DNA from: a virus
Taxonomy: Duplodnaviria; Caudoviricetes
DNA length: 62,685 nucleotides
IMG/VR virus record: IMGVR_UViG_3300032242_000480
Coordinates: 1-62,685 of that record
Strand: one strand, 5' to 3'
Of the stretch, positions 9,083-47,732 are shown in pieces. Below the pieces are notes generated by a model. It was not told the DNA's origin. It ran no database searches and worked only from the letters and a program-made list of their open reading frames with translations. Position 1 is the stretch's first letter; the number at the start of each line of letters is the position of its first letter. A program made the translations under genes and the position numbers.

Positions 9083-9338
9083 GAACCTGACGGCCAAGGA
9101 TCGTAGGCACTTTGCTTTGATCAAGGCCATGTCTTGCGGTGTATGTGGCGCTCCCGGCCCAAGTGATGCACATCACATTGAGCAGGGGCTTCACTTCCTG
9201 TGCATCCCCCTATGCAAGGACTGCCATCAGGGTTCACACAACGGCATCCACGGGCGCAGGTCGATCTGGAATGTTTTGAAGAAGACGGAGCAGTCCGTCC
9301 TCAACGAAACAATCCAGAAGCTCACCGAGTCTCGCTGA
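9072..9338 (+). CDS. Ref/DUF968-like zinc-binding HNH nuclease
   Basis: CGVC...DAHHI...IPLCKDCHQG..GIHG. Confidence 0.75.
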   Translation: MNSKNLTAKDRRHFALIKAMSCGVCGAPGPSDAHHIEQGLHFLCIPLCKDCHQGSHNGIHGRRSIWNVLKKTEQSVLNETIQKLTESR

Positions 9339-12300
9339 TCGCTTTCTTGATCTGCTGAATGTTGGCGGTCAAGTTGTTCTCAGCCTGACCGATGGTTGAC
9401 AGCGCATCCTTCTTCTCGGAGCCAGACATTGGGGAGGATATGATCATCTGCTTCATTTCGCGGAACTGTTTCATGTCCTTCTCCATGTTTCTGACGTAGT
9501 CCTTGAAGGCCAGCGTACCCATGTTTTCACCAAGGTATTTGGCAAACTCATCAGGCTTCATGCTCTTTTCGAGCAGGTTCACCGTCCGCACCACGGTGTC
9601 CACCTCATCCTTGAGCTTGTAGTAGGCGGTGACTGAGCCACGCGCCTCGGGATCGGCCATGAAGCGTTTGATAACTGGCATCTGTTCAAACCGCTTGTTG
9701 GGCTTTGGACTGTCGCCATACAGGCCCATGACGGAATCCATCAGGTCGATCGCATACATGCCCATCGTGCCCGTGTAGCCCTTGATCACATGGTCAACCT
9801 TGAGAGGTGACATGCCCAGCGTCTTGCCGACAAACTCTGCGACAGAGGATGTCCCCGGCCCAACTTGGAACTCGGGCGCAACGTCCTTCATGCCCTGACC
9901 CACAATCTCCCGGCCAGTGAACATGTTGTAGTTCGTCATGGCTTCGACCATAGGTTTAAACACCTGCGGCACGTAACCCACTGGGTTGATTGGCAGCGTA
10001 GAAAGCGTTGCCCGGTACAGTGAGTCACGCAGGTCTTGGCCTGTGTCATTGCCAAAGCTGTAGCGGTAGATGCGCTCAGGGATTGTTTTAAACAGCGTAC
10101 CCACTTCAAACGGGATTGGAATCTTCAGCCGAACGCCGGGGACGATCCAGTTGTTGTCCTTGGTTTCATCCTCTTGGGCTTCGTAGTCTGGATCACCAGC
10201 AACTGCTGCGGCGTACAAGAAGGATGTTGCAAACATCATGGCTGCACGGGCAATGAATCGACGCTGGATCAGCTTGGCATCCGAGGTGTTCATGTTGCCA
10301 GTGGCTGCGCGGTAGAACACATCCAGACCTTGTAAACGAGCGTTCAAGAACGGCACGGCGGCAGTCAGCACACGGATGATGGGAGAACTGCCCTTGCGGT
10401 TGAAGTTCAGGATTTCCCATGCGGCCCGGATGGCTTCAGCCTCATTGCCTGTTTCGCGCATGACACGGTCGTACACAGCAACACGGGTCGCTGCATCAGA
10501 CGCAGTTGTGGCTTTCTCAAGACCATCCCACAGCGATGTAAACGGACGCAGAGCCACCGGCCCTTTGTTGCCTGCTCGCTTGGAAAGTTCCTTGGCGACC
10601 GTGCGGCCAGACTGCTCCACGTTCTCACTGAACTCATAGCCGCCAATCACACCAGCATTCATCAGAGCTTCAAAGCCGGGAGACTTGCGAGCGTAAGCCT
10701 TCCCGAAATTGATGACCGTATCAGAGATAGGTGTGATGTTCTGGCCGCTGGTTGCGTAGGCCGACAGCGAGTCACGAACCAAGTTGGCAAGGATGAAGCC
10801 GGGATCGCGTGTCACAGCCTCACGCAGCAGGTTGGATGGCCCAGACAGCAAGCCCATGAACGGGATGTCAGGCATGTGCAGACTCTTTACCGCATCAACG
10901 AACAGCGGATCATCAGACTGATACTCCTTCATCACACCGTTTTCAAGCACCTTGATTTTCTCAAGATCGCTGACGGTCTTGCCGGGTTGAATGTCGTGAA
11001 CCACGCCAGCCTGTTTACCCACATCGCGGGCACGTTGGGCTGCGATGTTCTTCATGCCAGCGGCAATGGCTGACTGGCTGTTACGCACGACAGTTTCGAG
11101 GAAGTCCGCCAGCGGAGCCTCACCACCCTTCAATGCTTTGGGCTTCTTGACCCCAGAAATGGATTGGTAGATGTTCGGCCCCATCGTCTTCTCGCCGTCA
11201 AGCTGACGGAAGAATGGGATGTAGTCGTAGTACTTGGTGTACTCCTGTGCATCACGTTCAGACAGAACGCCAGCCGCCTTTTGGTAGGCAATCAGGTGGT
11301 TGTTGTACTCAACCCAGTCCTTGCGAATCTGCTCAAACTCAGGGAACTTCTGAGCCAACTCTTGTGCAAACGCAACATCACCCGGCTGGATCAGGCGCTC
11401 ACGGCCTTCAGAATACAAACGGGCACCGCGTTTAACCGCAGAGTAGAACTGAAAGTAACGGTAGGCTTTGGGGTCGCTGTACTTTGCCAAGGGTTGCAGG
11501 ATTTCCAGCAAACCTTTTTTGCTGTCATCGATTGTGGTCAAGCCATTCTTGATGACGGGCACACCGCCGCTGCGGCCACCGATACCAAAGGCAGACGCAG
11601 TCACACCAGCATGCATGTCAGACATCAGAGCGGCATGTTCTGCGCTGTTCTCAGCCATCATGGTGACGCCGCCCATCTTCTTGGCTGCTTCCTTGTCGGC
11701 CACGCTCAGTTCGTTGTAGCGGTTCAAGAACTGCTGGCGGTACATGCTGTAGTTCTCAGGCTTGAGGGCGCTCATCATGCGGTCAAAGAAGCCCTTCTCC
11801 TCGCGCACAGTGGTGGTCTCATTGATCCGGTTCTCAGCGCCAGCAGAAATCTGTGGCAAGCTGTAACGGACATCTTTAACTTCTCGGTTAAACGCACCCT
11901 CATTCCCGGTTGCAGACTTCAACTGGTAGGAGTTGTAAACAGCGTAGTTCTTCTTGCCAGCTTTGTTTTCACGGACGGCAAAGCCATCAAAGCCGTTCTT
12001 GCGAATGGCTTCTTGAACAAAGTCCTGCTCAATGGTCGCAAAGTAACCCTCCTCAATTGCACCCTTGAGGCGATTGAGGAATTGGTTGATGTTGACGCCG
12101 TTGGCTTCTTTCTTGGCAATGACCTTGCTGTTGTTGACGATCCATTGATACAGGCCATTCACATGGTCAGGGTTCTGGTAGTCAAAGATGTTGAGGCCGC
12201 TGGCGTACAGGGGCATGATCCTGATCTTCGCTGGAGACAGGGCATTGATTTCATCGTAGACAAGCTGCTCCAGATCGCCGCCAAAGAATGAGCCGTATTT

Positions 12301-15300
12301 GGGGTCTCTGCGTTCAACCTTGCGGATGATGTCTTTGGCTTCTTCTTTGGTGATGCTGCCCTGCTCAACGGCCTTGTCTGTGGCGCGTTGGAACATGGCG
12401 ACCTTCTCTTCTTTGCGCAGGGCGGCGTAAGCCATCTTGCGGCTGCGGTCTTCATCTTCGCTGGCAAAGCCTTCAGCCTCTTCTGGACTTTCCGAAATGA
12501 AAATGGCTTGAGCCTCCCCGGCAGGAGTGAACTCATAGAACTCACGGGATGTGCCGTGGTACATCACCTTTGGTGTGCCGTCAGGATTGACGAACTGCGT
12601 CTGGCGGATGAACTTCTTGAACTCCGGTGTGTCGGGCGTACCAGCTTCTTTGACCGCAGCTTTGGCTTCTCGGACGCTGTCAAAGCTGACCCGTTTGAGA
12701 CTTTGCTTGCCACCCTTCTCGGCCAACTCACTGACTGTGCCAAGATAGTTGACGGGCGCGTTGTGGTTCAGGACGACCATCATGCCCATAGAGGGCACTG
12801 CGTAGCCATCGTAACCAGCGTCAATCACTTCGGTTTCAAAGTTGTTTGAGTCACCCTGAGCGCGTGTAAACAACTTGCTCATCTCTGGGCCGGGGCCAAG
12901 GATGTTGTCAAACTGCTGGCTGTAAACGTACTGGCCTAAGCCCGCCTCACGCAGCGGCATTGTGCCATCTTCCTTGGGCACGTAGAAGTAAACACGGTTC
13001 TTGATGCGCTCATCAAACGCATCTTCTAAGCGGCGGCGTTCAGCGCCACGGATGCCTGTGCCGTACTTGCTGCCAGAAAGCTCTTGTACTTTTGCAGTGC
13101 CGTAGTGGGTGCCTGTGAAGGTGGAGGCGTTGGGCTGCTTTGTGCCCAGCGTTACGCCACCCTTGGCTGGCTCCTGCATGTCTCCAGCGCGGCCTTCATT
13201 CCATGTCCACTCAGGCATCAGGCCAGCCTTCTGGTCTGCAAACACGGTGTCTTCCGCTTTGGCTGATTTGTTCTTCTGCCCCTCTGGGCCAAAGTTCACC
13301 CAACTGTTTTGACCTCTTGTCTCAGAAGTCAAAGCGCCAATTGCTGGGCCTGTAAACAGCCTTGCATGAGCCTGCCATGCATTTTCTTCCCCACGGGCAC
13401 GAAAGCCTGCGCCCTCAATTCCATGACCAAATGCGTCATGAACAGCCCTGAACAAGTCGTTTGCCAACACTGGTGCAAGGGGGCCGTTTGGCCCGCCGAT
13501 GGGCCACTCAATGTTGGTTTTTTCCAGAAGCGGGTTTGCCTCTGGGCTGAAGTTTTCTTCGCTTCCAAAGCCCTCGTTTGTTGGGTACACGCCCATCTCT
13601 TTGTTGGCGCGAATATCCCGCATCGCATTCCAAGGCGATGACAAATATTCAAGGTTGCTTTCGTTGCTGGTGTCGATGAACCAGAATTTGTACCCGGCAT
13701 CTTCTAAGGCGCGGTACTGATCTTCCGTCTGCCTGATCAGGTCTTGATACGCAGCTTTGACCTTGGGGTCTTGCGGAGCATGCTCCATCGCGGCGTACTC
13801 ATCGGCAAGTCGCCGTGCGCGATCCTCATCCACATCAACGTAAGACGCCTGACGCTTTAGAGAGATGCCTTTTTGGGCTGCATATTTTTCTGCGACCGCA
13901 ACAATTCTTGGGTCTGGGCCATGAAAGCCTTCGACTGATGGCGCATCCGCAAGAGGCGTAATTGTCCGTCCCTCTTCTCGTCCGCCTCGTTCTCCAAGCG
14001 AGAGCTTGGCTTGTTTGCCTCTTGTGCCGGGTCTTTCGGCAGGTTGTTCAGATCGAGTGGTTGGTTCATTCTTTTCTCCTTTTGATTTCAACCCGCTTGG
14101 AGTTGCCTTAGCAACAGGGCTGACACCCTTCTCACCGCCTCGACCTCCTCGGGATTCCGCATATTTTGCGGCTCCGTCACTGAATCCGTAGGATGGGGAG
14201 AAGACTCCCATTTTGGTGAAGAGTTGCTGCTCGTAGAACCAAAGGAGGGATTGGACTTGGTACGGCTTGATTCCTGCATTTTTTGCTACCTCATTGACAA
14301 GTGCTTTGACCGCTTTGCGTTGCGGCTCGGTAGGTGCATCGATGATCTTTCCATCGGCATCAGTCATTGTGCCAAAGTATCGATTGAACGTTCGGGTCAT
14401 CCACTTGTCAACAGTGACATCGTGAATGCCGTTCAGGTTTGAAACAAACGGGCCAACCTTCGGGCCAAAGGCGTAAAGCCCCGGCACGGTGTCGGTCAAC
14501 TTGCCGCCAATACCGGATTTGATATTACCGTACTTCTGACGGAAATCGTTGATTTCCTTGACCGAGTGATCGGTGAACAACCACTCAAGGGCTTTCTTCT
14601 GACCCATGTCCTTGACCATGCGATCAAGGAACTCAAGTTGAATTTTCTTGTTGGGTGACTGAGTGCCACCCTGCCACAGACCGCCGGTCTCCGGATTGTT
14701 TCCGGGGATGTCTTTGGTTGCAACGTAGTGCTCGTATGCCTTGGCGGCAATGTTCCAGTTGTCGCGGGCGTTGGTCTGCGGCGACATGATCCCGGCCATG
14801 ACGCTGAAGAGCAGACGGTTATCTGTTTTGCCAAGCTCGGGCAAAAACTTTCTGGTTTGTTTAAACGCTTCCTTGATGTCCTCTTCGTACCAGTCAAGGC
14901 CGGACTTCTCTTGGGCCAGTTGGTGCTTGACCTCTTCGGTCGCAGCCTTGACCGCATTGTCAAAACTCTGGCTGTCGTTGTAAGACAGCTTGGAGCCGCT
15001 GCGCTCTTTGACTTGGTCATCAAAGTATTTGCCAATTAGATCAACCGTGGGCTTGAGCTTGGCTGGCTTGGTCTCACCCTCCTTCAGGGGGGCTTCAAAT
15101 TTTGGAACCTCTTCTCCGCGCACGATTGGGAGGCTCAATTTCTCAGCGCCCGCAAGTTTGGCGGTGGATGGCTTCAGTTCCCCACGTTCGATCTTACCAA
15201 ACACACTCTCTGCGGTCTGGAAGCCTGCGCCCGTGAAGCCATTCTTCAATGCCTCAAAGAACTTCTTGAGCTTGGCATGGAGGGACGCAAGCATGCCGGG

Positions 15301-17472
15301 AGGGGCATTCTTGATGTCAAAGGAGCCGAACGCATCAGCGATGGCTTCCTCAATGATTTCATCTTCAGTCAAGCCCAGTTTGCGGTAACCCTCAAGGCGG
15401 CTCATCCGCTGGCCGTCAATCTCAGTCTGCTGAGAGCCGAGGTATTCGTTGACCCATTTGTTCTTCGCCATGTTCTGAAGAACAGACCATTGCTGCGGCG
15501 TGAAGAAGCCCAAGTCTTTCAGGGCATGCACCGACTCATGGCGCATCGTCTGAACGGGGTTTGGCTCATCCAGTGCAATGCTCACAAGGCGGTTCAGGTA
15601 CTTACCCCCTGCACCGTTCTCAAGTTGCTTGACAATCTCAAGGCCAACATTGCTCAGGCCAAACTGCTGCATCTTGGTTTCAAGGGTTGCCTTGAGAGCC
15701 GCGATCTGGTCGGCGTTAAATGTTTGTTGCTGCTGCTGTTCTTGATGCTGTGTAAACACCTCTGGGCCGACGGCTTCGCGCACCACATTCTCCGCCTCCT
15801 GCATGGAGGGGAATGTGCCGATGGGTTGGCCGTCCTTGGTCAGGGTGAACTGCTGCTGGGTCTGCGTCTGGACTTCTCCGGGCATATGAACCAAGTTGCG
15901 GCTCAGGTACTCGTTCCTGTCCATCAGTTCTTTGATCTGCTGGGAGGCTACATCCTTGTCCTGCTCAACCTTCTGGCGGGCAGCGGTGTACTCTGGGGTG
16001 TTGGCTTGGCCTGTGGCCTCCATCACCTCAATGGCCTGTTCCTGCTTCTTGATGCCTTCGTTGATTTTCTCAACCTGCTCAAGAGTTTTGGCGGCTTCCT
16101 GCTTGCGGATTTCGTTTAAACGCTCAATCTTCGGCCCGACTTCTTCGGCAGCCTGCACAGTAGCCAAAGGTGCTGTACCACCTTCTTCCATGATGTGGTG
16201 CTCGACGGGGGCTTCAAACTGGCCGACATTCTCAGCGATGACCTGATGGCCTCCGGGCAAGTCGTAGGTTTCTGGAGGAGCCTCGGCTGGAGCCTCTGGG
16301 GCATTGGCTGTGGCCGCTGCAAGTTCCTTGTCAAACTCAATCTGTTCTTTTTGCTGGCGCAGGTATTGGTCAAGGTTGTAGTCGCTGCGCATCTCCGACA
16401 TCTTGACCGGTGTAAACGCACCGCCGGTCAGGGCACCAACCGCTGCATCACGCAGGGCAGAGCCAAGAACACCTTGAGTGACATCACCCTCGAGCAAGCC
16501 TTCACGCTGCATTGCAAGGTTCTGCGCATACTGACCAAAGCCACCCTGAAGACCTTCAAGGGGAGCTTCACCAACAATTGAACGCAGGGCTGCACCGCCG
16601 AGCGATGGGGCTGTGACAGCCTTCTCGGGCAGTTCCTTGATGCCAGCCTCAACGGCTTCTTTGCTCAGTTTGCCCTTGCCAGCTTTTTGGATGGCTTTGC
16701 GGACGCCACCCTCAATGCCTGTAAACGCATCAAGAGCACCGAGGAGACCGCTTCCGCCAATCTCCAAGGCTTTGTCCATTGAGTATTCCTGCGCCTGAAT
16801 AGCAAGGCGCTCGGCTTCCTCTGGCTTGTAGCCTTTTTCAAGGTAAGCCTTCTTGACCTCATCATGGACGCTGCCTTTGTACTCGCCAACGCCTTGGGCT
16901 GTACCCATAGCGATCTGGCCCAGACGGACAACACCCAGCGCCAAAGCGCCTTCAGGCGCAGCAAACACAGTGGCAAGACTTGCAGCCAGTGTGGGGGCAG
17001 ACGTACCAAGGGCTTGGGCAACGGATTGAATGGGAGCTTCAGCCACACCGCCAAGGAACGTTTTGGCTTCTTGCAGGAAGCTACCGGACGCAGTAGCCCG
17101 CTTCTCCAGTTCCTGACGGCGGGCCATCTCAGCCTGACGCTCAGGAGAGATGCCAGCCTGAACCTCTTGAGCCTTCTGGCCCAAGTAATTGGAGGCGTCA
17201 TTACCAGCGCCAAAGACATCGGCAACTGTCTTGGCTCCGCCAATCAGGCCAACGCCGAGCGAACGGCCAATGTCACCAATGGATGTGGGTGCGGATGGAG
17301 CACTCTCCAACTCCGCCGTGGACATCTTGGAATAGTCAGTTGGCCCAGCCCCCAGTTGAGGCTGTTGCATTTGACTTTGAACAAACCGAAAGATTTGACT
17401 GTCTGTTGCGCCTTCTGGTGCATCAACTGAGTAAATCTTGCCATCAGGAGCTTGTACTTTATGGATTGGCAT
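9322..17472 (-). CDS. Giant polyvalent virion/ejection protein (2716 aa)
   Basis: HESVH metallopeptidase motif, HhH-glycosylase-like VTVDKWM region, FRAVHDAFGH domain, two ART-like segments (HYGT..GYDGY; YHGT..GFDG..QLKS) and an LPD38-like C-terminus (IPIPFEVG, NYNMFTGREIV). Confidence 0.85.
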   Translation of the reverse strand: MPIHKVQAPDGKIYSVDAPEGATDSQIFRFVQSQMQQPQLGAGPTDYSKMSTAELESAPSAPTSIGDIGRSLGVGLIGGAKTVADVFGAGNDASNYLGQKAQEVQAGISPERQAEMARRQELEKRATASGSFLQEAKTFLGGVAEAPIQSVAQALGTSAPTLAASLATVFAAPEGALALGVVRLGQIAMGTAQGVGEYKGSVHDEVKKAYLEKGYKPEEAERLAIQAQEYSMDKALEIGGSGLLGALDAFTGIEGGVRKAIQKAGKGKLSKEAVEAGIKELPEKAVTAPSLGGAALRSIVGEAPLEGLQGGFGQYAQNLAMQREGLLEGDVTQGVLGSALRDAAVGALTGGAFTPVKMSEMRSDYNLDQYLRQQKEQIEFDKELAAATANAPEAPAEAPPETYDLPGGHQVIAENVGQFEAPVEHHIMEEGGTAPLATVQAAEEVGPKIERLNEIRKQEAAKTLEQVEKINEGIKKQEQAIEVMEATGQANTPEYTAARQKVEQDKDVASQQIKELMDRNEYLSRNLVHMPGEVQTQTQQQFTLTKDGQPIGTFPSMQEAENVVREAVGPEVFTQHQEQQQQQTFNADQIAALKATLETKMQQFGLSNVGLEIVKQLENGAGGKYLNRLVSIALDEPNPVQTMRHESVHALKDLGFFTPQQWSVLQNMAKNKWVNEYLGSQQTEIDGQRMSRLEGYRKLGLTEDEIIEEAIADAFGSFDIKNAPPGMLASLHAKLKKFFEALKNGFTGAGFQTAESVFGKIERGELKPSTAKLAGAEKLSLPIVRGEEVPKFEAPLKEGETKPAKLKPTVDLIGKYFDDQVKERSGSKLSYNDSQSFDNAVKAATEEVKHQLAQEKSGLDWYEEDIKEAFKQTRKFLPELGKTDNRLLFSVMAGIMSPQTNARDNWNIAAKAYEHYVATKDIPGNNPETGGLWQGGTQSPNKKIQLEFLDRMVKDMGQKKALEWLFTDHSVKEINDFRQKYGNIKSGIGGKLTDTVPGLYAFGPKVGPFVSNLNGIHDVTVDKWMTRTFNRYFGTMTDADGKIIDAPTEPQRKAVKALVNEVAKNAGIKPYQVQSLLWFYEQQLFTKMGVFSPSYGFSDGAAKYAESRGGRGGEKGVSPVAKATPSGLKSKGEKNEPTTRSEQPAERPGTRGKQAKLSLGERGGREEGRTITPLADAPSVEGFHGPDPRIVAVAEKYAAQKGISLKRQASYVDVDEDRARRLADEYAAMEHAPQDPKVKAAYQDLIRQTEDQYRALEDAGYKFWFIDTSNESNLEYLSSPWNAMRDIRANKEMGVYPTNEGFGSEENFSPEANPLLEKTNIEWPIGGPNGPLAPVLANDLFRAVHDAFGHGIEGAGFRARGEENAWQAHARLFTGPAIGALTSETRGQNSWVNFGPEGQKNKSAKAEDTVFADQKAGLMPEWTWNEGRAGDMQEPAKGGVTLGTKQPNASTFTGTHYGTAKVQELSGSKYGTGIRGAERRRLEDAFDERIKNRVYFYVPKEDGTMPLREAGLGQYVYSQQFDNILGPGPEMSKLFTRAQGDSNNFETEVIDAGYDGYAVPSMGMMVVLNHNAPVNYLGTVSELAEKGGKQSLKRVSFDSVREAKAAVKEAGTPDTPEFKKFIRQTQFVNPDGTPKVMYHGTSREFYEFTPAGEAQAIFISESPEEAEGFASEDEDRSRKMAYAALRKEEKVAMFQRATDKAVEQGSITKEEAKDIIRKVERRDPKYGSFFGGDLEQLVYDEINALSPAKIRIMPLYASGLNIFDYQNPDHVNGLYQWIVNNSKVIAKKEANGVNINQFLNRLKGAIEEGYFATIEQDFVQEAIRKNGFDGFAVRENKAGKKNYAVYNSYQLKSATGNEGAFNREVKDVRYSLPQISAGAENRINETTTVREEKGFFDRMMSALKPENYSMYRQQFLNRYNELSVADKEAAKKMGGVTMMAENSAEHAALMSDMHAGVTASAFGIGGRSGGVPVIKNGLTTIDDSKKGLLEILQPLAKYSDPKAYRYFQFYSAVKRGARLYSEGRERLIQPGDVAFAQELAQKFPEFEQIRKDWVEYNNHLIAYQKAAGVLSERDAQEYTKYYDYIPFFRQLDGEKTMGPNIYQSISGVKKPKALKGGEAPLADFLETVVRNSQSAIAAGMKNIAAQRARDVGKQAGVVHDIQPGKTVSDLEKIKVLENGVMKEYQSDDPLFVDAVKSLHMPDIPFMGLLSGPSNLLREAVTRDPGFILANLVRDSLSAYATSGQNITPISDTVINFGKAYARKSPGFEALMNAGVIGGYEFSENVEQSGRTVAKELSKRAGNKGPVALRPFTSLWDGLEKATTASDAATRVAVYDRVMRETGNEAEAIRAAWEILNFNRKGSSPIIRVLTAAVPFLNARLQGLDVFYRAATGNMNTSDAKLIQRRFIARAAMMFATSFLYAAAVAGDPDYEAQEDETKDNNWIVPGVRLKIPIPFEVGTLFKTIPERIYRYSFGNDTGQDLRDSLYRATLSTLPINPVGYVPQVFKPMVEAMTNYNMFTGREIVGQGMKDVAPEFQVGPGTSSVAEFVGKTLGMSPLKVDHVIKGYTGTMGMYAIDLMDSVMGLYGDSPKPNKRFEQMPVIKRFMADPEARGSVTAYYKLKDEVDTVVRTVNLLEKSMKPDEFAKYLGENMGTLAFKDYVRNMEKDMKQFREMKQMIISSPMSGSEKKDALSTIGQAENNLTANIQQIKKAISETR

Positions 17473-17490: not shown

Positions 17491-19197
17491 TTATTTGACT
17501 ATTCTAAATCCAGCAAACTCCTGTCCATCCTGTCCTGCGCCGCCATAAACACTTTGTGCTGTAGCCTTGTGCTGATTGATTTTGGCTTGAATCTGCGAAT
17601 TGATTTGAGCCACTGCACGGGCGTCATTTGTCTTTTGGGCGTTGATCAACTGCATGTTCAAAAGTTTCAAGCTGGTGTCTTCTGAAATGGCTTTTTCCAC
17701 CGCAGCACCAATTTTGGCTTGAGCGCCCAACTCAGATTTGTCATAGCCTGTTGCCATGCGAGTTGCCATGCTCATGACATCTGTGTTGGACTTGTTTTTG
17801 TTTTCGGGGTCTGCACGGAGCAGGTTGTAGATACCCATAGCGCCACCCTGCTGTGCGGCTTTGGCTCTTTCGATCGCCAACTTTTGAAGTTCAAGCTCAC
17901 GGGTTTGCGCAAGATGAGCGGCTTGGTAGCCCGACTGGTTGATGAGTCCGGTACGCTGCAAAGCCTCTTCGCCGCCAGCGCGTTTGGCTGTGAGGTCAAG
18001 CTGAGTGGCTTTAAACACATCATCACCAGCGCGTTGACCAGCCGTTTGAGCGGTTTGGTAGTTGCCCTTCTTGGCTGCAACCTTCTGTTGTTCAAAATTG
18101 TCGCGGGCGTCTTCCAGTTTCTCTTTGGCGGCACGGCTTGCGGCTTCACCTTGGATTAAAGACTGAATGCCCTGACGGCCTTCGTTGCCCAGAGCGCCAG
18201 CAAGAGTTCGTTCTTTGCTACCTGCGATACCAAAACCAAGGCTCATCAGGTTCATGGCTCGGGTCATGGCCAAGTCTTTTTCCTGAGAGGCTTTGCGGGC
18301 CTGCAACAGTTCTTCCCGTGTCTCAAAACCGGGTTTGTCAAAAGCCTCAAGTTCAGCCTGAGAAGCCTTGATGGCTTTCTCTGTGGCTTCCTTTTGCTTT
18401 TTGTCCATACCGCTAACGATGGACGCATAGTCAATTGCCTCTGGGGGCTTTTCAGGAGTCCAAGGTTGGTTTGGTTTAGCCGCAAAAGCGGTAAGTCCGG
18501 GTATCTTGTTGCCACCCATAGGCGCACCAGCGCCGGGTGCTGCAACTTGCGGCATCACACCGGGAGGGGTTTGGATTGTGGCTGGCGCAGGGTTTACAAC
18601 ATTTGCAGATTTGGTTGCAGCAGGAGGCTGTTGGGCCATTTGCCTTTTGAGCATTTCTTGCTCCAGCGCCAACTTGCGTTTCCACTCTGGCTCTTCTGGT
18701 TTAAACACCATGCGCTCCAGAAGCGATCGGCCAACATAGGGAGACTGGGTTCCGGCGGCGGACATGATTTCACTGCCACCCATCGAGTCAGGCATATCCA
18801 TGCTGACAGGCTGATCCATGTTGTTTGCAAAAGCCACAATGCCACCGCCAGCATAGGACTCGGGAAGGTTGGATGGCAGGGTTTCCACACCTTGGTCTTC
18901 TTGGGCCGCTTGTTGCATCACCTGTTGGGCCAGAGGCTCACTTCCCTGCGCAGGAGGCATACCAGCGCCAGCAGCTTGTTGGGCTGCATGGGCTTTGGCT
19001 GCGTTCAGCTTCTGGGTCAGTTCCTGAACCAGTGGAATGCCGACATAAGGCTTGATCGAGCCGCTTTGAATCTCAGCCACCAGACGCTGCTGGAGGGATT
19101 GAAGTTCTTGCGGGTTGTTCATCCGTTGTGCCATAGCTGCCATCGAGGCAGCGCGGCGAGACATCTCATCTTGGAGGCTATTGAGGCTCATGACCAA
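17491..19197 (-). CDS. Internal virion/DNA-ejection protein
   Basis: Helical, Ala/Gln-rich, 568 aa; position beside the giant protein; YAGGG motif. Confidence 0.6.
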   Translation of the reverse strand: MVMSLNSLQDEMSRRAASMAAMAQRMNNPQELQSLQQRLVAEIQSGSIKPYVGIPLVQELTQKLNAAKAHAAQQAAGAGMPPAQGSEPLAQQVMQQAAQEDQGVETLPSNLPESYAGGGIVAFANNMDQPVSMDMPDSMGGSEIMSAAGTQSPYVGRSLLERMVFKPEEPEWKRKLALEQEMLKRQMAQQPPAATKSANVVNPAPATIQTPPGVMPQVAAPGAGAPMGGNKIPGLTAFAAKPNQPWTPEKPPEAIDYASIVSGMDKKQKEATEKAIKASQAELEAFDKPGFETREELLQARKASQEKDLAMTRAMNLMSLGFGIAGSKERTLAGALGNEGRQGIQSLIQGEAASRAAKEKLEDARDNFEQQKVAAKKGNYQTAQTAGQRAGDDVFKATQLDLTAKRAGGEEALQRTGLINQSGYQAAHLAQTRELELQKLAIERAKAAQQGGAMGIYNLLRADPENKNKSNTDVMSMATRMATGYDKSELGAQAKIGAAVEKAISEDTSLKLLNMQLINAQKTNDARAVAQINSQIQAKINQHKATAQSVYGGAGQDGQEFAGFRIVK

Positions 19198-19200: not shown

Positions 19201-20775
19201 TTATGATTTACCCATTGCGTTTGCCAGACCAACGCCAGCAATACCCATACCAGTGATTTGGTTTGCCAGTGTTGGTTGGGCAGAATACTGGGTTGTAGTT
19301 TGACCGGGCACAGCATAACCACGCAACAAAGCATTGAAGTTGTTGAGGTTGGTAAGCGGCTGCTGCTGCGCTTGCGCGTAGTTGTTGATTGCGTTGTTGA
19401 TGATGTTCTGCTGCTGGGCTTGCTGCTGACCACCAATGGTGTTCTGTAAACCAAGGATGCCCATCTGGGTTTGGTTTTGCTGTGTGCCCAAGGAGCCAAG
19501 GGTATTGGCCGCTTGGTTTGCCAAACCGTATCCGGCCTGAGCGCCGCTGACACCTTGCAGACCAACTTGAGCGCCCTGCATACCTTGAGCCGTGCCAGCC
19601 AGTTGACGATCCACACCCTGCAATCCCATGCCCGCGCCTTGGATGCCGGTTTGGTAGGCTTGGTTGGCTGCGTTTACACCAGACAAAGCGCCTTGTTGGC
19701 CTTGCAGCGCAGCACCAATGCCGGACAAGCCAAGCTGACCGCCCTGCAAAGCAGTTCCCAAACCAGACTGCGCACCGGACAAACCTTGAAGGCCAAGGGT
19801 GTTGCCATACTGCATGTTCTGCATGGCTTGGGCGTAAGCATTCTGCAAGCCTGTGGCTTGGTTCATGTTCATGGTGGACTGCAAAGCGCGGTTGGCTTCT
19901 GCATCCTCAATCGCCTGACGGGCACCACCAAAAGCACCAGCCCGAGCGGCGGCAGAACCGCGAGACTGCGCGGCAATGTCAGCTTGACGCTGTGCGGCTT
20001 GGTTTTGAAGGTCGGTCACACTCTGCAAGTACGGGTTCATGTACTGCTGAATGGCGGCGGCGTTGGTCGCTTGGTTGGCGTAGTTCTGCCCAGCCGCAGC
20101 TTGTTGAGCGGCGTAGTTCTGGGATTGGTTGGTGATCTGATTACCGGTATTTTGGGCGTTCAATCCCATCATGCCGATCTGAGAAGACAGGTCACCGTAG
20201 CCCTGAGCGTTACCAGCCAAATTAGCGGCTTGTTGTCCGTAGCCAGCACCCATGTTGCCGTAGTACTGACCGCCTTGTATGCCAAGCTGTTGGCCTTGCT
20301 GGCCGGATTGGAAACCCGCATTGCCGTAGCCAAGAGCTTGTTGGGCAGACTGCATGCCGCCCATACCCGCAGCATTTGCCAAATCGGTTCCCTGTTGAAA
20401 CTGACCGGGCATCTGCAAGTTCGCAGCGTTGTTCTGAACTTGCTGTTGCAAAGGACTGAAGCCAGCCACATAGTCAGCAGGGTTGGTGCTGTACGGGGTG
20501 TACGGCTTTGTCCCGGTGATGTCTTGCGCATAAGCCTGATTGCCATTGGCATCCAAAACAGGAGTGCCATCAGCATTCTTGAGTGCTGCACCTTTCTGCG
20601 TAGTGAACAACTGCTGCGTGGCCCCGCCAAGCAATTGTTCAACCTGCGGGCGAAGCCAATCAGGAATGTTGGATTGCGTAACGGTTGAGTTTGTTGGGCC
20701 ACCGCCGCCACCACCAAGGTGATATTCACGGCGACCGTCACGGCTGTAACCGTTAAATTTGTTTGGGATGATCAT
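19201..20775 (-). CDS. Gly/Gln/Ala-rich DNA transfer (pilot-like) protein
   Basis: GGGGG-PT..TVTQSNIPDW, YMNPY, AGAFGGARQ; low-complexity helical repeats. Confidence 0.65.
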   Translation of the reverse strand: MIIPNKFNGYSRDGRREYHLGGGGGGPTNSTVTQSNIPDWLRPQVEQLLGGATQQLFTTQKGAALKNADGTPVLDANGNQAYAQDITGTKPYTPYSTNPADYVAGFSPLQQQVQNNAANLQMPGQFQQGTDLANAAGMGGMQSAQQALGYGNAGFQSGQQGQQLGIQGGQYYGNMGAGYGQQAANLAGNAQGYGDLSSQIGMMGLNAQNTGNQITNQSQNYAAQQAAAGQNYANQATNAAAIQQYMNPYLQSVTDLQNQAAQRQADIAAQSRGSAAARAGAFGGARQAIEDAEANRALQSTMNMNQATGLQNAYAQAMQNMQYGNTLGLQGLSGAQSGLGTALQGGQLGLSGIGAALQGQQGALSGVNAANQAYQTGIQGAGMGLQGVDRQLAGTAQGMQGAQVGLQGVSGAQAGYGLANQAANTLGSLGTQQNQTQMGILGLQNTIGGQQQAQQQNIINNAINNYAQAQQQPLTNLNNFNALLRGYAVPGQTTTQYSAQPTLANQITGMGIAGVGLANAMGKS

Positions 20776-21203
20776 AAAAGTACCTCAACCAATGTGTTGC
20801 GTGGCTCAAAGTTGTATCGCTTCCAAAGGCGAACGATGGCATCACGGCCATACCCTTGAATTTTTGTTGCGCCACGGTTTTTCATCAAATTCTTCAACTG
20901 CTCAAATGTGTCTTCACTGGAAATCAGCTTGCCACCGATTGCAGTTACAAACGCCACACGGTGAAGCGGGTAGTTGATAAACGACACAGTGGCCGCACCG
21001 TGGATCACGTTTTCATCATCTACAGCAACCAGAAGCAGCCATTGACCAGATGTGACAAAGCCCTGAATGTGATCGACTGTGTAGCCAGCCGCCCACTCAG
21101 GGAAGTCTCCACCCTTTTTCATCGCCTCATCAATGTACGGCTTGACCAAAGGCCAAGTCTGTTGGATGTAATTCACATCAACGGGGCGAATGGTCAGGTT
21201 CAT
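20772..21203 (-). CDS. GNAT-fold protein of the ejection module
   Basis: AFVTAIGG ... GATKIQGYGR..IVRLWKRYNF pattern; syntenic with T7 gp13-like genes. Confidence 0.55.
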   Translation of the reverse strand: MNLTIRPVDVNYIQQTWPLVKPYIDEAMKKGGDFPEWAAGYTVDHIQGFVTSGQWLLLVAVDDENVIHGAATVSFINYPLHRVAFVTAIGGKLISSEDTFEQLKNLMKNRGATKIQGYGRDAIVRLWKRYNFEPRNTLVEVLL

Positions 21204-22249
21204 TTTTTACCAACCAAATTTGCAATCCCGCCTTTGGCGTAGTTGCGGACAACAGGCGTACCACGCATACCAGCCGATCGACTGTAAATTGGTTGCTGCG
21301 GGCCTGAGCTACGAGCAGCTTGATTTTGAAGTTGGTTCCAGTCACCTTGCGACTGCTGCCCAATCATGTTGTTGGCGGCATTGCGAATGATCTGGTCGTT
21401 AAACCCTTGACCCCGCGCTTGGTTGTAGAAGTTAGCCTTGTCCTGCATGGTTCCATTTTGCAAGCCGGGTGTCATGCCCATAGCCGCACCTTGCAACCAT
21501 CCCCATGCTTGGGGAGACTGCTGACCAAAAAGACCGCCCGCTTGGTTGTAAATCTGTTGATCAGTAAATCTGTTCTGAATTGCATTGCGGTACATGTTGG
21601 CTTTATCCGCCATGCTGCCTTGGCTCAAGTTCTGATCCATGTTCAAGAACGAGTTTGAGTAAGGGCTGTATGGATTGTTTGACCCATATTGCCCATAGCC
21701 ACCACCCTGCATCTGACCGCCAAACATTGAAAACGGTGTTTGCATTTGAGGGATGCCGCCAGATGGTTGCTGACCATACTGGCTCACATTCATGTTGTTG
21801 CCAGTGTTGTAGTTCTGGTACTGTGGCTGGTACACAGGTTGGTAGAACTGCGCCGATCCGGGCATGGGCCGATTGCCGGGAGCCTGTTGACCTGCATACT
21901 GCACCAGTTGATTCCAGTCGGAATCTGATTGGTTGCCAAACACCGTATTGGCAGACGAGCGAATCTGTTGGTCATTAAAACCTTGACCAAGCAGCGTGTT
22001 GTAGATGTTGCCTTTTTGCTGTGCCGTCACATTTGGGCCTTGAGCCTGCATCAATGTGTTGTAGCCAGCCTGCGTGTTTACACCCAAACCAGTCCAAGGT
22101 GTGGCTGAATTTGGGTTGTATGCAGGAGTTGTTGTGGCCGTGGTCGTAGTCACCGGAGCCGACACTACGGGCGCAGCATAACTGTCCCCTTCATTCGGGT
22201 AAACCCTGATACCAGCTTGGTAGCCACTGTATTTGATTGGAATAATCAT
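21200..22249 (-). CDS. Gln/Asn-rich virion protein with three internal repeats
   Basis: K.N.Y......GF.DQ.IR..A....G.QS...W..L occurs three times. Confidence 0.65.
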   Translation of the reverse strand: MIIPIKYSGYQAGIRVYPNEGDSYAAPVVSAPVTTTTATTTPAYNPNSATPWTGLGVNTQAGYNTLMQAQGPNVTAQQKGNIYNTLLGQGFNDQQIRSSANTVFGNQSDSDWNQLVQYAGQQAPGNRPMPGSAQFYQPVYQPQYQNYNTGNNMNVSQYGQQPSGGIPQMQTPFSMFGGQMQGGGYGQYGSNNPYSPYSNSFLNMDQNLSQGSMADKANMYRNAIQNRFTDQQIYNQAGGLFGQQSPQAWGWLQGAAMGMTPGLQNGTMQDKANFYNQARGQGFNDQIIRNAANNMIGQQSQGDWNQLQNQAARSSGPQQPIYSRSAGMRGTPVVRNYAKGGIANLVGKK

Positions 22250-22258
22250 GGCTGCTCC

Positions 22259-23353
22259 TTATGCGGGCATGTACTTGGCAGGTTTGATCTGCTTGCCTTG
22301 GGCAACCTTGCCTGTACGGGCCTGACGAACTTTGTTCATCATGGCGTACAACTGTTTGGCTCCTGCATCTGTGGAGCCGTTACCCAAATGGGAGACTACA
22401 TCTGCGGGCACAACAAATTCACCGTCAGCCAAACGGGCTGGGCGTTGACCACCAATTGTTGCTGGGATGTTGTCGGACATGCCATCACCGGGGCCGCGCA
22501 ACATCTGACCGCCGTCAGAATAGCTGCCCAGATTGGCAATGCCGCCATGAGCCATATTGGCTGTGGGGTACGCATCTTCACCGACTTGGCGATCGTAGCC
22601 GCCAGAAGCCAAAGTTGTGATGCCGCCTTCCGCATACATGGACGGACGGTAGTTGCTTGGGTCGTAGTGGAACCGCTTCAGGACGCCGTTGTATTCTGGG
22701 ACACCGGGCATTGGGCGGCGACCGCCAGTCGCACCAGCCAGCGCCGCAGCACCCATCTTGAACTTGTTGTCCATGATGTATTTGCTGGGGTCTTGAATCG
22801 CTTGTTGAAACGATGTTGGGCCAACAGCGCCCGGAGCGGCAACTTGCGCTGGAGGCAATGCAGAGATGCCCGGAGTCGCAGATGCGCCAGCTTGCAAACC
22901 AGACTGCGCCAGTTCGGGTGCAGCATTTGACAATGTGGTAGCTGCCGAGGGTGCGGTGAGCATGGAGCTTCCAAAGTTTCCCGCGCTTATTGAAGCTGGC
23001 GATCCAGCGCCAAGACTGCCAAGGTTGGCCCCTGCCGTCTGACCAAGCGTTGTGCCCGCCGTGCTGGCTGTCAAAGGAGTTTGTGCAGCCACATTGGCTG
23101 CTTGAGCCACTTCTGGTGTCAATGCTGCGGTTGTTCCGGGCATTGCACCACTCAAAGCGCCGCCAATCCCACTCATGGCCCCGCCCGTCAGGCCACCCAT
23201 CAAAGCACCCTTCAGGGGGTCACCGCCAGTGATAGCAGCAGAACCGCCACCCATCGCAGCACCGAGAAGCGCAGCTTCACCAATACCTCCATCGATGTAG
23301 TATTTGCGAATACCATCGCGGGAATAGCCATTGAATTTGTTTGGGATCAGCAT
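22259..23353 (-). CDS. Virion/ejection protein with Gly-zipper N-terminus and GPG..SD.IPA..L.DGEFV domain
   Basis: The C-terminal domain resembles the segment seen in many phage tape-measure/ejection proteins. Confidence 0.7.
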   Translation of the reverse strand: MLIPNKFNGYSRDGIRKYYIDGGIGEAALLGAAMGGGSAAITGGDPLKGALMGGLTGGAMSGIGGALSGAMPGTTAALTPEVAQAANVAAQTPLTASTAGTTLGQTAGANLGSLGAGSPASISAGNFGSSMLTAPSAATTLSNAAPELAQSGLQAGASATPGISALPPAQVAAPGAVGPTSFQQAIQDPSKYIMDNKFKMGAAALAGATGGRRPMPGVPEYNGVLKRFHYDPSNYRPSMYAEGGITTLASGGYDRQVGEDAYPTANMAHGGIANLGSYSDGGQMLRGPGDGMSDNIPATIGGQRPARLADGEFVVPADVVSHLGNGSTDAGAKQLYAMMNKVRQARTGKVAQGKQIKPAKYMPA

Positions 23354-23414: not shown

Positions 23415-23762
23415 TTATCCGACTTTCCAGTTTGTTCCGTCTGAGTAGACGGGCACATTTACAGTTCCGCCACCAACAACATTTGACCCAAACACAGGGG
23501 TCAAGGCGTTGGTCACAAAAGACCTTGCTCCTGCGCCAGCCGTAGCTGCGCTGGGTAGGGTGGCAACGGTGTAGTTGGTGAGGGCGGGTACATCATCTGC
23601 GGCTTTGAGACGAGCAATGAAATCGTCCAGCCGGTTGAAGTACAAACGGAGGACGCTGTTCAACTGATCGGCATACTTGGCGTCCCAAACCCTTGGAGCC
23701 AGCGGCAGGCTTGGGGCTGCAATTTTGTCGATCGCATAGTCTGTGGTGACAATTTTGCTCAT
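23415..23762 (-). CDS. Hypothetical virion protein
   Basis: ATGA overlap; YTVATLP, PVYSDGTNW. Confidence 0.7.
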   Translation of the reverse strand: MSKIVTTDYAIDKIAAPSLPLAPRVWDAKYADQLNSVLRLYFNRLDDFIARLKAADDVPALTNYTVATLPSAATAGAGARSFVTNALTPVFGSNVVGGGTVNVPVYSDGTNWKVG

Positions 23763-25873
23763 CGACGGCCATCCTGCCTGATGTCAATTCGAGGAGCGCC
23801 AAGCTGCCAAGTGGTGCCAATTTGGTTTGACTCAATCTTGAAGATCAACTGACGGCCACGCACCCGTGTGTAAACCTGACCGGTAAACTGTTCGGTGTTG
23901 TTGATGGTGTATGCCTGTTTAAACTTTACCGTGTCAGCATCAGATTTACCAATCCCGGAGCCTGAGTTTTGCAGGGGGTACAAAGTCATGGTGACCTGCG
24001 GAGGTAAACCATCTGGCGAAGTGCTGGAATCTTCAAAGGTCAAATCAGGCAAGACGCGCCAGACAAAACCAAATTGGTGCCCATCTCCAATGTCAAATTC
24101 AGAAGAGGAAATGTAGGCATTGATTGCCCGGATGTTTCCTGTCTCCTGATCATCAACACCATTTTCGTGGTTGACCAGCCTGTTGTTGTACGTGGCGGCA
24201 ATCGGGAACGCCAACAAGCCGGAATCCAGCCAAGCTGTTCGAGCCATAGTGCCGTAATACCAGTTGTCTTCCAAGTAGTTGTACACAACGTACTTGTCGA
24301 TGGTCGATGAATTTGCCGAGCAGTAGAACCACCAGACTTCATTGAAGCCCTCATTGGTGCTCGAGTACACCTGTTGGTTCTGAATTTGGTTGATGTCTTG
24401 GAACACGTAGCGGCGCAGGTCGCAATTGAGAGTCTGCACACGGCCATCGTATTTGTAGAATTTGTCCACACCCATCCAGTACACAATGCCTGACGCGAGA
24501 CTGACTGCGTTCGGCCCCATGACGGAGATGTTGTCACCCAGCAATTGACTGCCCCACACATACGGTGGGCCAAGGTATTGGAGGGAATACACAGCCTGAT
24601 CGGTCAGGACAACAATTTCCTGCCGGGTTTGGATGGCGGTGATGATCTGCGAGCCATGAGACAGTCTGACGCTACCCGCTTGGTTGGTTGCTTGCGGAGT
24701 CCATGTGTACGGGTCTTCCTGCGCAGACCAGCGAATCAGCATGGGGTCGAGATAGTCAGCGCCGTAATCGTTCGTGCCAAACACAAGAATGAACCGGGAT
24801 GTGTCTGAAACGATGATGTAGTTCTGGAACAGTGGTGTGTCCGCATCTCCTGCGTCAGCAAGGTCAACGCCCCGCTGGGAGATGTATTGAATGCCGGACT
24901 GTGTTCCAGAAGTATTGATCGCTGCACCGCCGATCGTGGTGGACAAGTTAAATGTGCCGCCCGTCGAATTTTTGGCAAAGTACACCTGACCGACCGTCAA
25001 ACCGGTTGGCAACGCCCCAGTTGATGCCAATGTGAAAGCCGTACCTTCAGGAATTGAAAACCCAGTTGGCAGTGTGACAACCCCCGGCGATGCAATGGAG
25101 ATGGTGATCTGGATTTGGCTGTAGCCAACGCTGGCGTTCCAGTAATACAAGCCACCACCACGGGGGCCGTAGACCAAATCTTCACCGTAGTTGTAAGCGT
25201 TCCAAAGCTGCAAAGCGGAGCCAGTGGACTGAGCGTAACCCCATGTTCCAGAACCCCAGCCGCCAGCGCCCCAACCAAGCAACGGGACTTGATAAGAGGG
25301 GCCGGTGTTGACTTGGTACTGGGCAACGGCGCTTCCGCCGCCGGGAGAACCGGAAACATCAGCAGCGGTGGCTGTTGCCGAGGCTGTGAAGGTGTACTGG
25401 TTGGCGTTGACAACAGTGACTTCAAATTCACCCTTCAGGACAGCAGCCGTGATGTTTCCACCCAAACCAGTGATGCCAGACCCGCTGTACGTTACGAAGT
25501 CGCCTGTCACGCAGCCATGACCAGTTTCATTGACTGTGATGATCTTGGAGCCAAGCGTGGCAGAAAACTTGTTGGTCAGCGTAACCGTCTTGCGGATTGG
25601 CGTGATGTCAAAAAACGCACCGCCTTGGCAGATGTAGTATTTCAAGTTGGTGCCAACACCAATCAAGTTTAAACCTGCCAGCGTCACCCAGTTCCAAAGG
25701 GAGCGGCAAACACCCAAAAAGGTGTTTACAGAAAACTGAGTCCAGCCGCCGATCTTCTCAGGGTTGCCTTGGCGGAAGCGAATTTTGTCGCACTCGTACC
25801 AGCCGCCCTCGGTGGTGTATCGGGTATTTTCCCGGTTTACACCGGGCTTGAGCAGGATTTTTTGTAATGGCAT
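23759..25873 (-). CDS. Tail nozzle/stabilisation protein (P22 gp10-like beta-propeller)
   Basis: Beta-rich; IRWS, YWMG..FY.YDG, NEVWWFY motifs; podovirus context. Confidence 0.65.
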   Translation of the reverse strand: MPLQKILLKPGVNRENTRYTTEGGWYECDKIRFRQGNPEKIGGWTQFSVNTFLGVCRSLWNWVTLAGLNLIGVGTNLKYYICQGGAFFDITPIRKTVTLTNKFSATLGSKIITVNETGHGCVTGDFVTYSGSGITGLGGNITAAVLKGEFEVTVVNANQYTFTASATATAADVSGSPGGGSAVAQYQVNTGPSYQVPLLGWGAGGWGSGTWGYAQSTGSALQLWNAYNYGEDLVYGPRGGGLYYWNASVGYSQIQITISIASPGVVTLPTGFSIPEGTAFTLASTGALPTGLTVGQVYFAKNSTGGTFNLSTTIGGAAINTSGTQSGIQYISQRGVDLADAGDADTPLFQNYIIVSDTSRFILVFGTNDYGADYLDPMLIRWSAQEDPYTWTPQATNQAGSVRLSHGSQIITAIQTRQEIVVLTDQAVYSLQYLGPPYVWGSQLLGDNISVMGPNAVSLASGIVYWMGVDKFYKYDGRVQTLNCDLRRYVFQDINQIQNQQVYSSTNEGFNEVWWFYCSANSSTIDKYVVYNYLEDNWYYGTMARTAWLDSGLLAFPIAATYNNRLVNHENGVDDQETGNIRAINAYISSSEFDIGDGHQFGFVWRVLPDLTFEDSSTSPDGLPPQVTMTLYPLQNSGSGIGKSDADTVKFKQAYTINNTEQFTGQVYTRVRGRQLIFKIESNQIGTTWQLGAPRIDIRQDGRR

Positions 25874-26570: not shown

Positions 26571-27065
26571 ATGAGCGACATTGATTTTACATTTCTGAAG
26601 GAACATCTTCAGTACGACCAAAAAACTGGCGAATTTGAATGGGTAAAGTCCCCCGCCAGAGCTATCAAAGCAAACACCAAAGCAGGTCGATTGAGGCCCG
26701 ACGGATACGTCAGCATTCAAATTAAAGGCCGACTGTATTTTGCGCACAGGATTGCTTGGCTGATTGTGTACGGAGAATGGCCAAAAGACCAAATTGACCA
26801 CATCAATCGAAATCGTTCCGACAACAGATTTGAAAATTTGCGCTGCGTTTCCAGAAGTCAAAACGGGCAAAACAGAAAACCAAACATTGGAAGTGCAAGC
26901 GGTCATCCGGGTGTTACTTGGAGCAATACGTTCAAACGTTGGCGTGCGCACATTACAAAAGACAAGAAACCAACCTATCTTGGGTCGTTTAAAACCTTGG
27001 ATGAGGCAATTTCCGCCAGAAAAAAAGCGGAAAAAATTATGTTTAGTCACGCCCCACTCCGTTGA
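26571..27065 (+). mobile_element. Free-standing HNH-AP2 homing endonuclease, antisense within the lysis cassette
   Basis: AHRIAW, IDHINRNRSDNRFENLR, GVTW...WRAHI...YLG.F; AT-richer than its flanks. Confidence 0.9.
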
Positions 27066-47303: not shown

Positions 47304-47732
47304 TTATTTACGCTTGATGCCCCGTGGATCGTCCACGGTTCCGTCCACAGAATCATCATTGATCATGCGGAACTCTCGGCCATGAATGACAAGGCGCGAT
47401 CCTGCGTGTGGCTTGGTAAGGATGAAGTCACCCTTCTTGCACCACGGCCCAGTTGGAAATTTGGCTTTGTCCACATAGCAGTCCGGCCCCATGTCAACAA
47501 CGAAAAGAACCGTGGTTAGGGTCTCCTCATTGCGCATGGTTTCATCAGCTTTGATCAAACCAATTTCACTCTCCTCAAACTTGCTGTCCGCTTCCGGGAT
47601 GGCACAAAGGATTTTGTAGCCAGCAGGTTTGGGAAGTTGTTTGCCCTTTTCTTCTGCGGTTGCAGAAAAGTTATAGGCTCCCACAACTTGGGGGTTGTTG
47701 GCGTCTGTAGCCAACAAAATGGATTCAGTCAT
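47304..47732 (-). CDS. GroES-like co-chaperonin
   Basis: P.GYKIL, VVDMGPD.Y, WCKKGDFI, G.EFRMINDD. Confidence 0.8.
   Translation of the reverse strand: MTESILLATDANNPQVVGAYNFSATAEEKGKQLPKPAGYKILCAIPEADSKFEESEIGLIKADETMRNEETLTTVLFVVDMGPDCYVDKAKFPTGPWCKKGDFILTKPHAGSRLVIHGREFRMINDDSVDGTVDDPRGIKRK

Follow-up and report, generated by a model that had tools for sequence, protein, structure and literature searches.

The internal proteins of phage T4 (IPI-III and Alt) carry an N-terminal capsid-targeting sequence that is cut by the prohead protease gp21 at an L/I-x-E site. In phage P22, where the genes run in the order 10-26-14-7-20-16, the first 20 amino acids (aa) of gp7 are annotated as cut off by the host Salmonella OpdA protease (NC_002371). 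Passages on gp7 in the literature place the removal of these 20 residues by a host protease before assembly (Wu et al. 2016, PMC4992974), give the mature N-terminus as Lys-Gly-Gly-Lys-Gly, assign procapsid binding to residues 21-154 and report that ~60% of the burst remains when the 20 residues are deleted (Leavitt et al. 2021, PMC8402733). The preceding slot, IVP-A, was described for phiRIO-1-group podoviruses as acetyltransferase-like and non-structural, with gene matches to acetyltransferases, in the section that Hardies et al. 2016 (PMC4819975) devote to internal virion proteins. Here, we analyzed the virus record IMGVR_UViG_3300032242_000480 (Duplodnaviria; Caudoviricetes) over its whole length of 62,685 bp, referred to as the window, which is a complete podovirus-type genome with direct terminal repeats. 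Three of its putative ejection proteins, P524, P349 and P364, share an N-terminal leader of about 20 residues and are encoded around a gene for a predicted GNAT-fold protein. We compare this leader with that of P22 gp7, as whose counterpart, a cleavable and dispensable propeptide, it may be read.

An N-terminal leader module shared by unrelated proteins

The minus-strand open reading frames (ORFs) of 524, 349 and 364 aa all begin with M[IL]IPxK[FY]xGY…GxRxY. A six-frame regular-expression scan located the motif at exactly three places in the window, each time at the first ATG, 0-3 codons past an in-frame stop, and each ATG is preceded at 8-12 nucleotides (nt) by a Shine-Dalgarno (SD)-like GAGG, AAGGAG or AGGAG. 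Within the first 30 codons, an alternative start codon is absent from P524 and P364, and the sole candidate in P349 is a GTG at codon 29. The three proteins were recovered by a hidden Markov model (HMM) of the leader at E=9e-16, 5e-15 and 2e-12 among 11,155 ORFs. The leaders of P524 and P364 agree at 15 of 20 residues and 41 of 60 nt, and nine of the 15 shared residues are encoded by different codons; selection therefore acts on the peptide. Past residue 26, the bodies of P524, P349 and P364 gave no composition-corrected BLASTP match better than E=0.06. Tandem Repeats Finder reported no DNA repeat beneath the leaders and no DNA-level tandem repeat in P349 either, a protein in which three imperfect ~40-aa repeats (K-x-N-x-Y … G-F-x-D-Q-x-I … W-N-Q-L) can be made out by eye. 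The three ORF starts and their codons, the dissimilarity of the bodies and the conservation of peptide rather than DNA had all been claimed by an earlier reading of the DNA (hereafter the sequence-only reading), and these claims hold; true starts downstream of the leaders, which would have undone its proposal, are disfavored by the SD-like sites and by the lack of any other start in two of the three genes.

The leader recurs widely as a module of ~20 residues, only at N-termini and on several cargo families. For relatives of the window, its tail-hub protein (P704) matched at least 600 stretches in IMG/VR; 80 loci were retained from them. IMG/VR was also scanned with a degenerate DNA pattern for M-I-[IV]-P-x-K-[FY]-x-G-[YF], which hit 44 loci, 31 of which were true leaders at ORF starts followed by a glycine (Gly) run; one of the others was seemingly frameshifted and 12 were unrelated (among them five in glycosyltransferases and three in a 73-aa protein). 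The sequence-only reading had proposed a profile search, and a profile built from 22 leaders matched 149 protein clusters among 1.84 billion representative proteins (E<=0.001). The match begins within residues 1-8 in 147 of these clusters, and in 141 of the 147 a Gly run begins after 18-25 residues (median 20), giving the overall pattern M-[IL]-I-P-x-K-[FH]-x-G-Y, 2-3 residues, G-x-R-x-[YF], 0-3 residues and an oligo-Gly run. Cargo bodies of at least 120 aa (n=106) fell into ten single-linkage BLAST components with 44, 28, 25 and 3 members and six singletons. The component of 44 is IVP-B/P524-like, that of 28 is P349-like and that of 3 forms a fourth group, while the 25-member component is mixed; P364-like Gly-zipper proteins are among its members, and low complexity may have chained it together. 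Four 8-residue leader strings returned no match in a full-text literature search.

Relatives differ in where, and whether, they carry the leader, here termed type 1. Some phages have it on P349 and others on the IVP-B protein (the position of P524), and here three genes bear it. Across 67 non-redundant loci with both P364- and P524-family genes, 43 have no copy and 23 have one; three copies are found in the window only, which is unusual in this respect alone. P349 orthologues mostly begin with the type-1 leader and then poly-Gly (GGGGGG in L102), and in sister phages such as L005, L020, L104 and L117 orthologues of P364, P349 and P524 start as Met plus the Gly run (L005 and L104, for instance, in the case of P364). 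These natural leaderless orthologues suggest, on comparative rather than genetic grounds, that the leader is dispensable. Common to the P524 family is an invariant poly-Gly that runs into PTxSTVTQSNIPDWLRPQVE; ahead of this poly-Gly, at least six other extensions occur, among them MSYSRRELYAMGEPLGES…GGRIIY, MLFFKYIPGLYQGADHTGRRVFNM and MNLFKFWKSFFFDQF…, and several of these end in a G-R-R-x-aromatic element resembling the type-1 leader. A different N-terminal module of ~50 aa heads the P364 family in other relatives and also Venkman gp46, the counterpart of P524.

This ~50-aa module, G-[DN]-x-x-L-[VA]-H-[MIV]-x-P-x-E … G-G-x-x-T-I-N-P-x-T-G-L-P-E, belongs to no Pfam or PHROG family and heads large P364-family proteins in relatives that lack the GNAT gene (L010:11782-14871, L025:5058-8588, L129:8405-9313 and 20 others), with a duplication inside one such protein. 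The 1029-aa protein of L010 also contains DUF4214 (E=1e-10) and, below threshold, a match to pretoxin-HINT (E=1e-4), which may hint that some ejection proteins process themselves. A short G-G-I-[AV]-x-[LF] motif comes just before the module (GDxxLAH…INPxTGLPE) in L025; in the window it is found toward the C-terminal ends of P349 and P364 and within the first third of P568 (BLASTP E=0.06).

A GNAT-fold gene and the oligo-glycine N-terminus

The 143-aa protein encoded between P349 and P524 was modeled by AlphaFold 2 with a pLDDT of 89.7 and a pTM of 0.83. Foldseek returned 268 matches in the PDB at E<=0.001, the top ones all being GNAT acetyltransferases (E ~1e-8, TM ~0.65), so the predicted fold bears out the earlier GNAT-fold call. 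At the sequence level, no Pfam match was obtained at E<=0.1, and the best match of the family profile to PDB sequences had E=0.077. The acetyl-CoA motif A (R/Q-x-x-G-x-G/A, in the beta4-alpha3 loop) is not conserved in the 22-sequence GNAT alignment A1, where L57, G69 and G111 are the only invariant positions and Y78, P79 and R120 come close to invariance. The protein occupies the IVP-A slot (T7 gp13, P22 gp14), a helper gene already known from such phages; this assignment is made because of its position, its fold and the description in Hardies et al. 2016, not because of sequence similarity, and the protein is a member of neither PF11090 (T7 gp13) nor PF11039 (P22 gp14). The comparison with T7 gp13 in the sequence-only reading was in this sense apt. 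In L075 (14558-15016), the same slot upstream of a poly-Gly protein holds a canonical Pfam GNAT (PF00583, E=6e-9) that can barely be aligned to the window GNAT family (hhalign E=0.056), reflecting either extreme divergence or non-orthologous replacement.

The GNAT gene co-varies with the oligo-Gly N-terminus of the downstream ejection protein. Among 68 unique P524-family N-termini, scored for a Gly run as GGG in the first 55 residues, an A1-family GNAT gene lies immediately upstream in 28 of the 32 loci with GGG, usually with a 4-nt overlap, versus only two of the 36 without GGG (34 have no GNAT), and the two N-termini concerned contain GG. The four GGG loci without an adjacent A1-family gene comprise L116, with the GNAT two genes upstream, L075, with its Pfam GNAT, L121, with an unrelated 149-aa protein, and L021, with a fused protein. 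In L116 (2174-3332, minus strand), the GNAT and IVP-B genes are separated by insertions that encode an S-adenosylmethionine (SAM)-dependent methyltransferase (PF08241, E=3e-8) and a helical protein of 155 aa, and a homologue of this 155-aa protein stands in place of the GNAT in L121.

The association was also placed on a FastTree phylogeny of 56 tail-hub proteins. L075 counted here as GNAT-positive, and either GGG within the first 50 residues or MSGGS counted as a Gly run. On this tree the GNAT state switches nine or more times, and eight of the switches are forced by well-supported branches. In ~8 independent contrasts, the Gly run followed the GNAT in 6.9 (mean) and went against it in 0.0 (sign test, median p=0.016). 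Phages with near-identical hubs can differ in the cassette, one carrying the GNAT with a Gly-run IVP-B protein and another a GNAT-less version (L038/L043, L045/L076/L079 and other pairs), and the front end of the ejectosome has therefore been exchanged as a block, at least eight times in 56 loci. The GNAT gene and its downstream neighbor overlap and so travel together as one cassette, which makes linkage a serious competitor to a functional explanation. Downstream of GNATs that share 65-77% identity with that of the window stand N-termini of types 0, 1, 2 and 4, which speaks against the GNAT recognizing the leader. The check for co-occurrence of leader and GNAT suggested by the sequence-only reading gave two results: the GNAT does not track the leader type, and it does track the oligo-Gly N-terminus. 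The section on internal virion proteins in Hardies et al. 2016 makes no mention of such a link, through which the long unexplained acetyltransferase-like IVP-A proteins gain a candidate partner, the Gly-rich N-terminus of the adjacent gene's product.

A similar arrangement was found in cultured phages. LUZ24 gp54 (hhalign 95%, E=2e-8), NV1 gp50 (HMM E=3e-6 among 9 proteins) and Venkman gp47 (38.6% identity) belong to the window GNAT family, and in all three phages the next gene encodes a protein with a 24-57-residue leader followed by KGGS, KGGGS or KGGGGG. Venkman gp46 matches phrog_4287, "DNA ejection protein". In the passages of the Pa223 preprint on virion proteins, the 313-aa gp56 is an ejection protein and putative outer-membrane channel, and from its equal length of 313 aa and the shared genus we infer that it is the counterpart of LUZ24 gp53. 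The passages of that preprint giving the virion proteins detected by mass spectrometry contain no text match to "gp57", an indirect hint that the IVP-A product may be absent from the virion, with the gene equivalence deduced from LUZ24.

Propeptide, targeting tag or acylation substrate

By analogy with P22 gp7, the shared leader may be a cleavable, dispensable propeptide and not a capsid-targeting signal, a reading to which we give an even chance. A peptidase, in all likelihood an OpdA-type oligopeptidase of the host, would cut the leader at the Gly-run junction before the proteins enter the procapsid, and the mature proteins would begin with oligo-Gly, as the leaderless orthologues do after removal of the initiator Met. 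OpdA prefers scissile bonds flanked by Gly or Ala and takes only N-terminal segments that are short, with which the tight leader length of ~20 residues would agree. In the sequence of P22 gp7, too, the leader runs into Gly residues (KGGKGG). The leader would be helpful but dispensable and would move by recombination between ejection-protein genes, the window happening to have three copies, and the GNAT-fold protein would act as a non-virion IVP-A morphogenesis factor that is co-inherited with the oligo-Gly N-terminus on the downstream gene. The "cleavable leader" of the sequence-only reading is thereby favored by analogy, through the ejection operon, the orthologues that start exactly at the Gly run and P22 gp7.

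Several observations weigh against this reading, in which cleavage is proposed by analogy and the enzyme and the timing before assembly are likewise putative. The position just before the Gly run is occupied by different residues (M 23, P 22, D 20, S 19, K 17, F 13 and others), and no clear cleavage motif emerges. Alignment of P524 with P22 gp7 by hhalign covered a short motif, KPFTP…S-L, with a probability of 1.7% (E=0.029), which hints at homology but does not establish it; LUZ24 gp53 matches P22 gp7 in the same region (BLASTP E=0.006). LUZ24 gp53 and Venkman gp46 were not found by a P524 profile search, and hhalign detected no similarity of the window GNAT family to T7 gp13 or P22 gp14. P364 and P349 are encoded upstream of IVP-A and lie outside the P22 paradigm. 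Finally, the strong conservation of the leader at the peptide level, alongside synonymous divergence, implies a function that the term "dispensable propeptide" does not name.

The sequence-only reading had named a capsid-targeting leader as one of two options. In such a scheme, modeled on T4, the leader would be a tag that docks the three cargo proteins to scaffold, portal or core and is then either kept or cut by a phage protease. A single N-terminal tag common to unrelated internal proteins is what T4 displays, NG and DG turn motifs in the leader alignment suggest a small beta-hairpin suited to docking, and the leader is conserved as a peptide. However, sister phages with hubs 62-75% identical to that of the window encode the same proteins without the leader. 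Pfam and PHROG sequence scans from terminase to capsid, which could miss a divergent protease, found no prohead protease family in an interval containing portal, GroES-like, acidic coiled-coil, beta-rich 289-aa and Mu gpT-like capsid proteins, and the gene that follows the portal resembles one for an acidic coiled-coil scaffold. Glu precedes the Gly run in only one of 141 clusters, unlike the T4 site, and the P22 leader, going by the gp7 passages cited above, is deletable, is gone before assembly and lies outside the procapsid-binding residues. Taken together, the leaderless orthologues, the missing protease family and the P22 precedent leave the targeting signal without support, and we regard it as rather unlikely.

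A further alternative, likewise put forward in the sequence-only reading, follows the logic of ribosomally synthesized and post-translationally modified peptides (RiPPs): removal of the leader would expose an N-terminal Gly, and the adjacent GNAT would N-acylate it with an acetyl or fatty acyl group for insertion of the ejection protein into a membrane. We consider this scheme improbable. The GNAT gene is translationally coupled to that of the Gly-run protein, usually through the 4-nt overlap, the two co-vary (28/32 versus 2/36, with ~8 independent contrasts), the canonical GNAT of L075 sits in the same slot before a poly-Gly protein, and a leaderless M-G-G-G-G start would expose Gly after Met excision. 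Conversely, the window family has neither the conserved R/Q-x-x-G-x-G/A motif nor a Pfam GNAT match, overlapping neighbors are exchanged together so that the co-variation may reflect linkage, and close GNATs precede four types of N-terminus, which speaks against leader recognition. In addition, Pfam names T7 gp13 a "probable scaffold protein", and T7 gp14 has no Gly-run N-terminus. Co-folding of alignment A1 with residues 1-70 of P524 (A2) gave a score of 0.01 in a run without controls, which was used neither for nor against binding. The more general form, in which IVP-A GNATs are N-terminal acyltransferases acting on the oligo-Gly of the outer-membrane ejection protein, whether exposed by leader removal or by Met excision, appears equally doubtful. 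If it were true, IVP-A GNATs would be the phage counterpart of the N-myristoylated penetration proteins of eukaryotic viruses, the role of T7 gp13-type proteins would be explained, and the interchangeable 20-residue leaders would be pro-sequences that time the modification.

That the leader is a functionless remnant of recent gene conversion, or an artifact of wrong starts, would agree with its clear movement between genes (P349, the IVP-B protein or three genes), but this account is very improbable and, judged from the sequences, close to refuted by the synonymous divergence of two leaders (different codons at nine of 15 identical residues) and the N-terminal restriction across 147 divergent clusters, besides the SD-like sites and the lack of an alternative start in two of three genes.

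The ejectosome module and its closest described systems

The leader genes belong to a late operon of hub, needle-slot protein, P364, P349, GNAT, P524, P568 and P2716, which is the ejectosome module of this phage (Table 1). Structural genes lie nearly all on the minus strand of the window, which further contains two tail-fiber paralogues and a lysis block. By tblastn, P704 matched 144 phage records, LUZ24-like phages included, annotated as stabilization or virion structural protein. Given its match to LUZ24 gp56 and the gene order, P704 is likely the equivalent of Pa223 gp59, which the passages of the Pa223 preprint on these proteins identify as the tail hub, with gp58 as the needle. P115 homologues, whose C-termini vary, come after the hub gene in the relatives' loci inspected, in the position of P22 gene 26 and Pa223 gp58. 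The C-terminal 90 aa of P364 match proteins of MinM2, Pag-Yong1 and Caulobacter phages. Pfam and PHROG scans assigned no family to the three leader proteins or to P568, and searches against isolated phages returned no match by megablast for 17-26 kb of the window or by tblastn for P524. An HESVH zincin-like stretch of P2716 was considered as a processing metallopeptidase and dropped, as neither Pfam nor the PDB supported it. Two homing-endonuclease-type genes lie within the structural/lysis region, at 26571-27065 (plus strand) and 38443-39066 (minus strand); one combines HNH_3 and AP2 and lies on the opposite strand between lysis genes, and the second is a GIY-YIG type with an I-TevI-like DNA-binding domain.

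Table 1 Positions of late genes, leaders and the oligo-Gly junction in the window
Feature	Position	Strand	Remarks
Terminase	50436-52010	-	
Portal	47913-50426	-	
GroES-like co-chaperonin	47304-47732	-	phrog_3188, E=1e-6; between portal and putative scaffold genes
Acidic coiled-coil protein, probably scaffold	46354-47292	-	
Mu gpT-like capsid gene	44108-45019	-	
P704, tail hub / "stabilization" protein heading the module	23759-25873	-	phrog_3287, E=1e-60
P115, small protein in the tail-needle slot	23415-23762	-	identity suggested by position
P364, Gly-zipper-rich putative ejection protein with leader	22259-23353	-	364 aa
Leader of P364, residues 1-21	23291-23353	-	21 residues
P349, Q/N/G-rich putative ejection protein with leader	21200-22249	-	349 aa
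Leader of P349, residues 1-18	22196-22249	-	18 residues; Gly run decayed to NEGD
Predicted GNAT-fold protein in the IVP-A slot	20772-21203	-	143 aa; 4-nt ATGA overlap onto P524
P524, IVP-B-position ejection protein, putative outer-membrane-channel component	19201-20775	-	524 aa; directly downstream of IVP-A
Leader of P524, residues 1-20	20716-20775	-	20 residues
Hexa-glycine run of P524, proposed mature N-terminus and processing junction	20698-20715	-	by analogy with P22 gp7 KGGKG
P568, next ejection protein (place of P22 gp20 or T7 gp15)	17491-19197	-	placed by position only
P2716, giant polyvalent internal protein (place of P22 gp16 or T7 gp16)	9322-17472	-	Pfam LPD38 (4e-36), ART-PolyVal (ADP-ribosyltransferase; 3e-8), DUF7178

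Should the propeptide reading be correct, the P22 gp7 leader, so far treated as a single-protein curiosity, would be one case of a widespread class of interchangeable pro-sequences on podovirus ejection proteins, all ending at an oligo-Gly junction and with one type reused on unrelated cargo groups. Gene callers and structural studies of ejectosomes should then expect mature N-termini ~20 residues past the annotated start.

Bacteriocin double-glycine leaders and RiPP tailoring by GNATs offer a resemblance, as they involve a short leader that ends at glycines and a GNAT gene beside the substrate. In contrast to those systems, the neighborhood of the window genes holds no C39 peptidase or transporter, the cargo consists of virion proteins of 350-1200 aa, and the GNAT does not track the leader type. 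T4 shares with the window the use of one short N-terminal leader on unrelated internal or ejected proteins; it differs in its prohead protease, of which none was found here by the family scans, in its Glu-type junction and in the existence here of leaderless orthologues. The GNAT gene itself resembles T7 gp13, P22 gp14 and the phiRIO-1-group genes in encoding an acetyltransferase-like protein of ~140 aa between the hub/needle genes and IVP-B, although sequence similarity to T7 gp13 and P22 gp14 is not detectable. The closest comparison is with P22 gp7. Similarity between the leader sequences cannot be demonstrated, and the window leader, unlike that of gp7, is spread over four or more multi-member cargo groups, occurs on three genes of a single genome and has a longer poly-Gly junction. 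What the two have in common is the operon order, an N-terminal extension of 20 residues on the protein encoded directly downstream of IVP-A (which fits P524), a Gly-rich N-terminus past the leader and an extension that is dispensable in P22 and appears to be so here.

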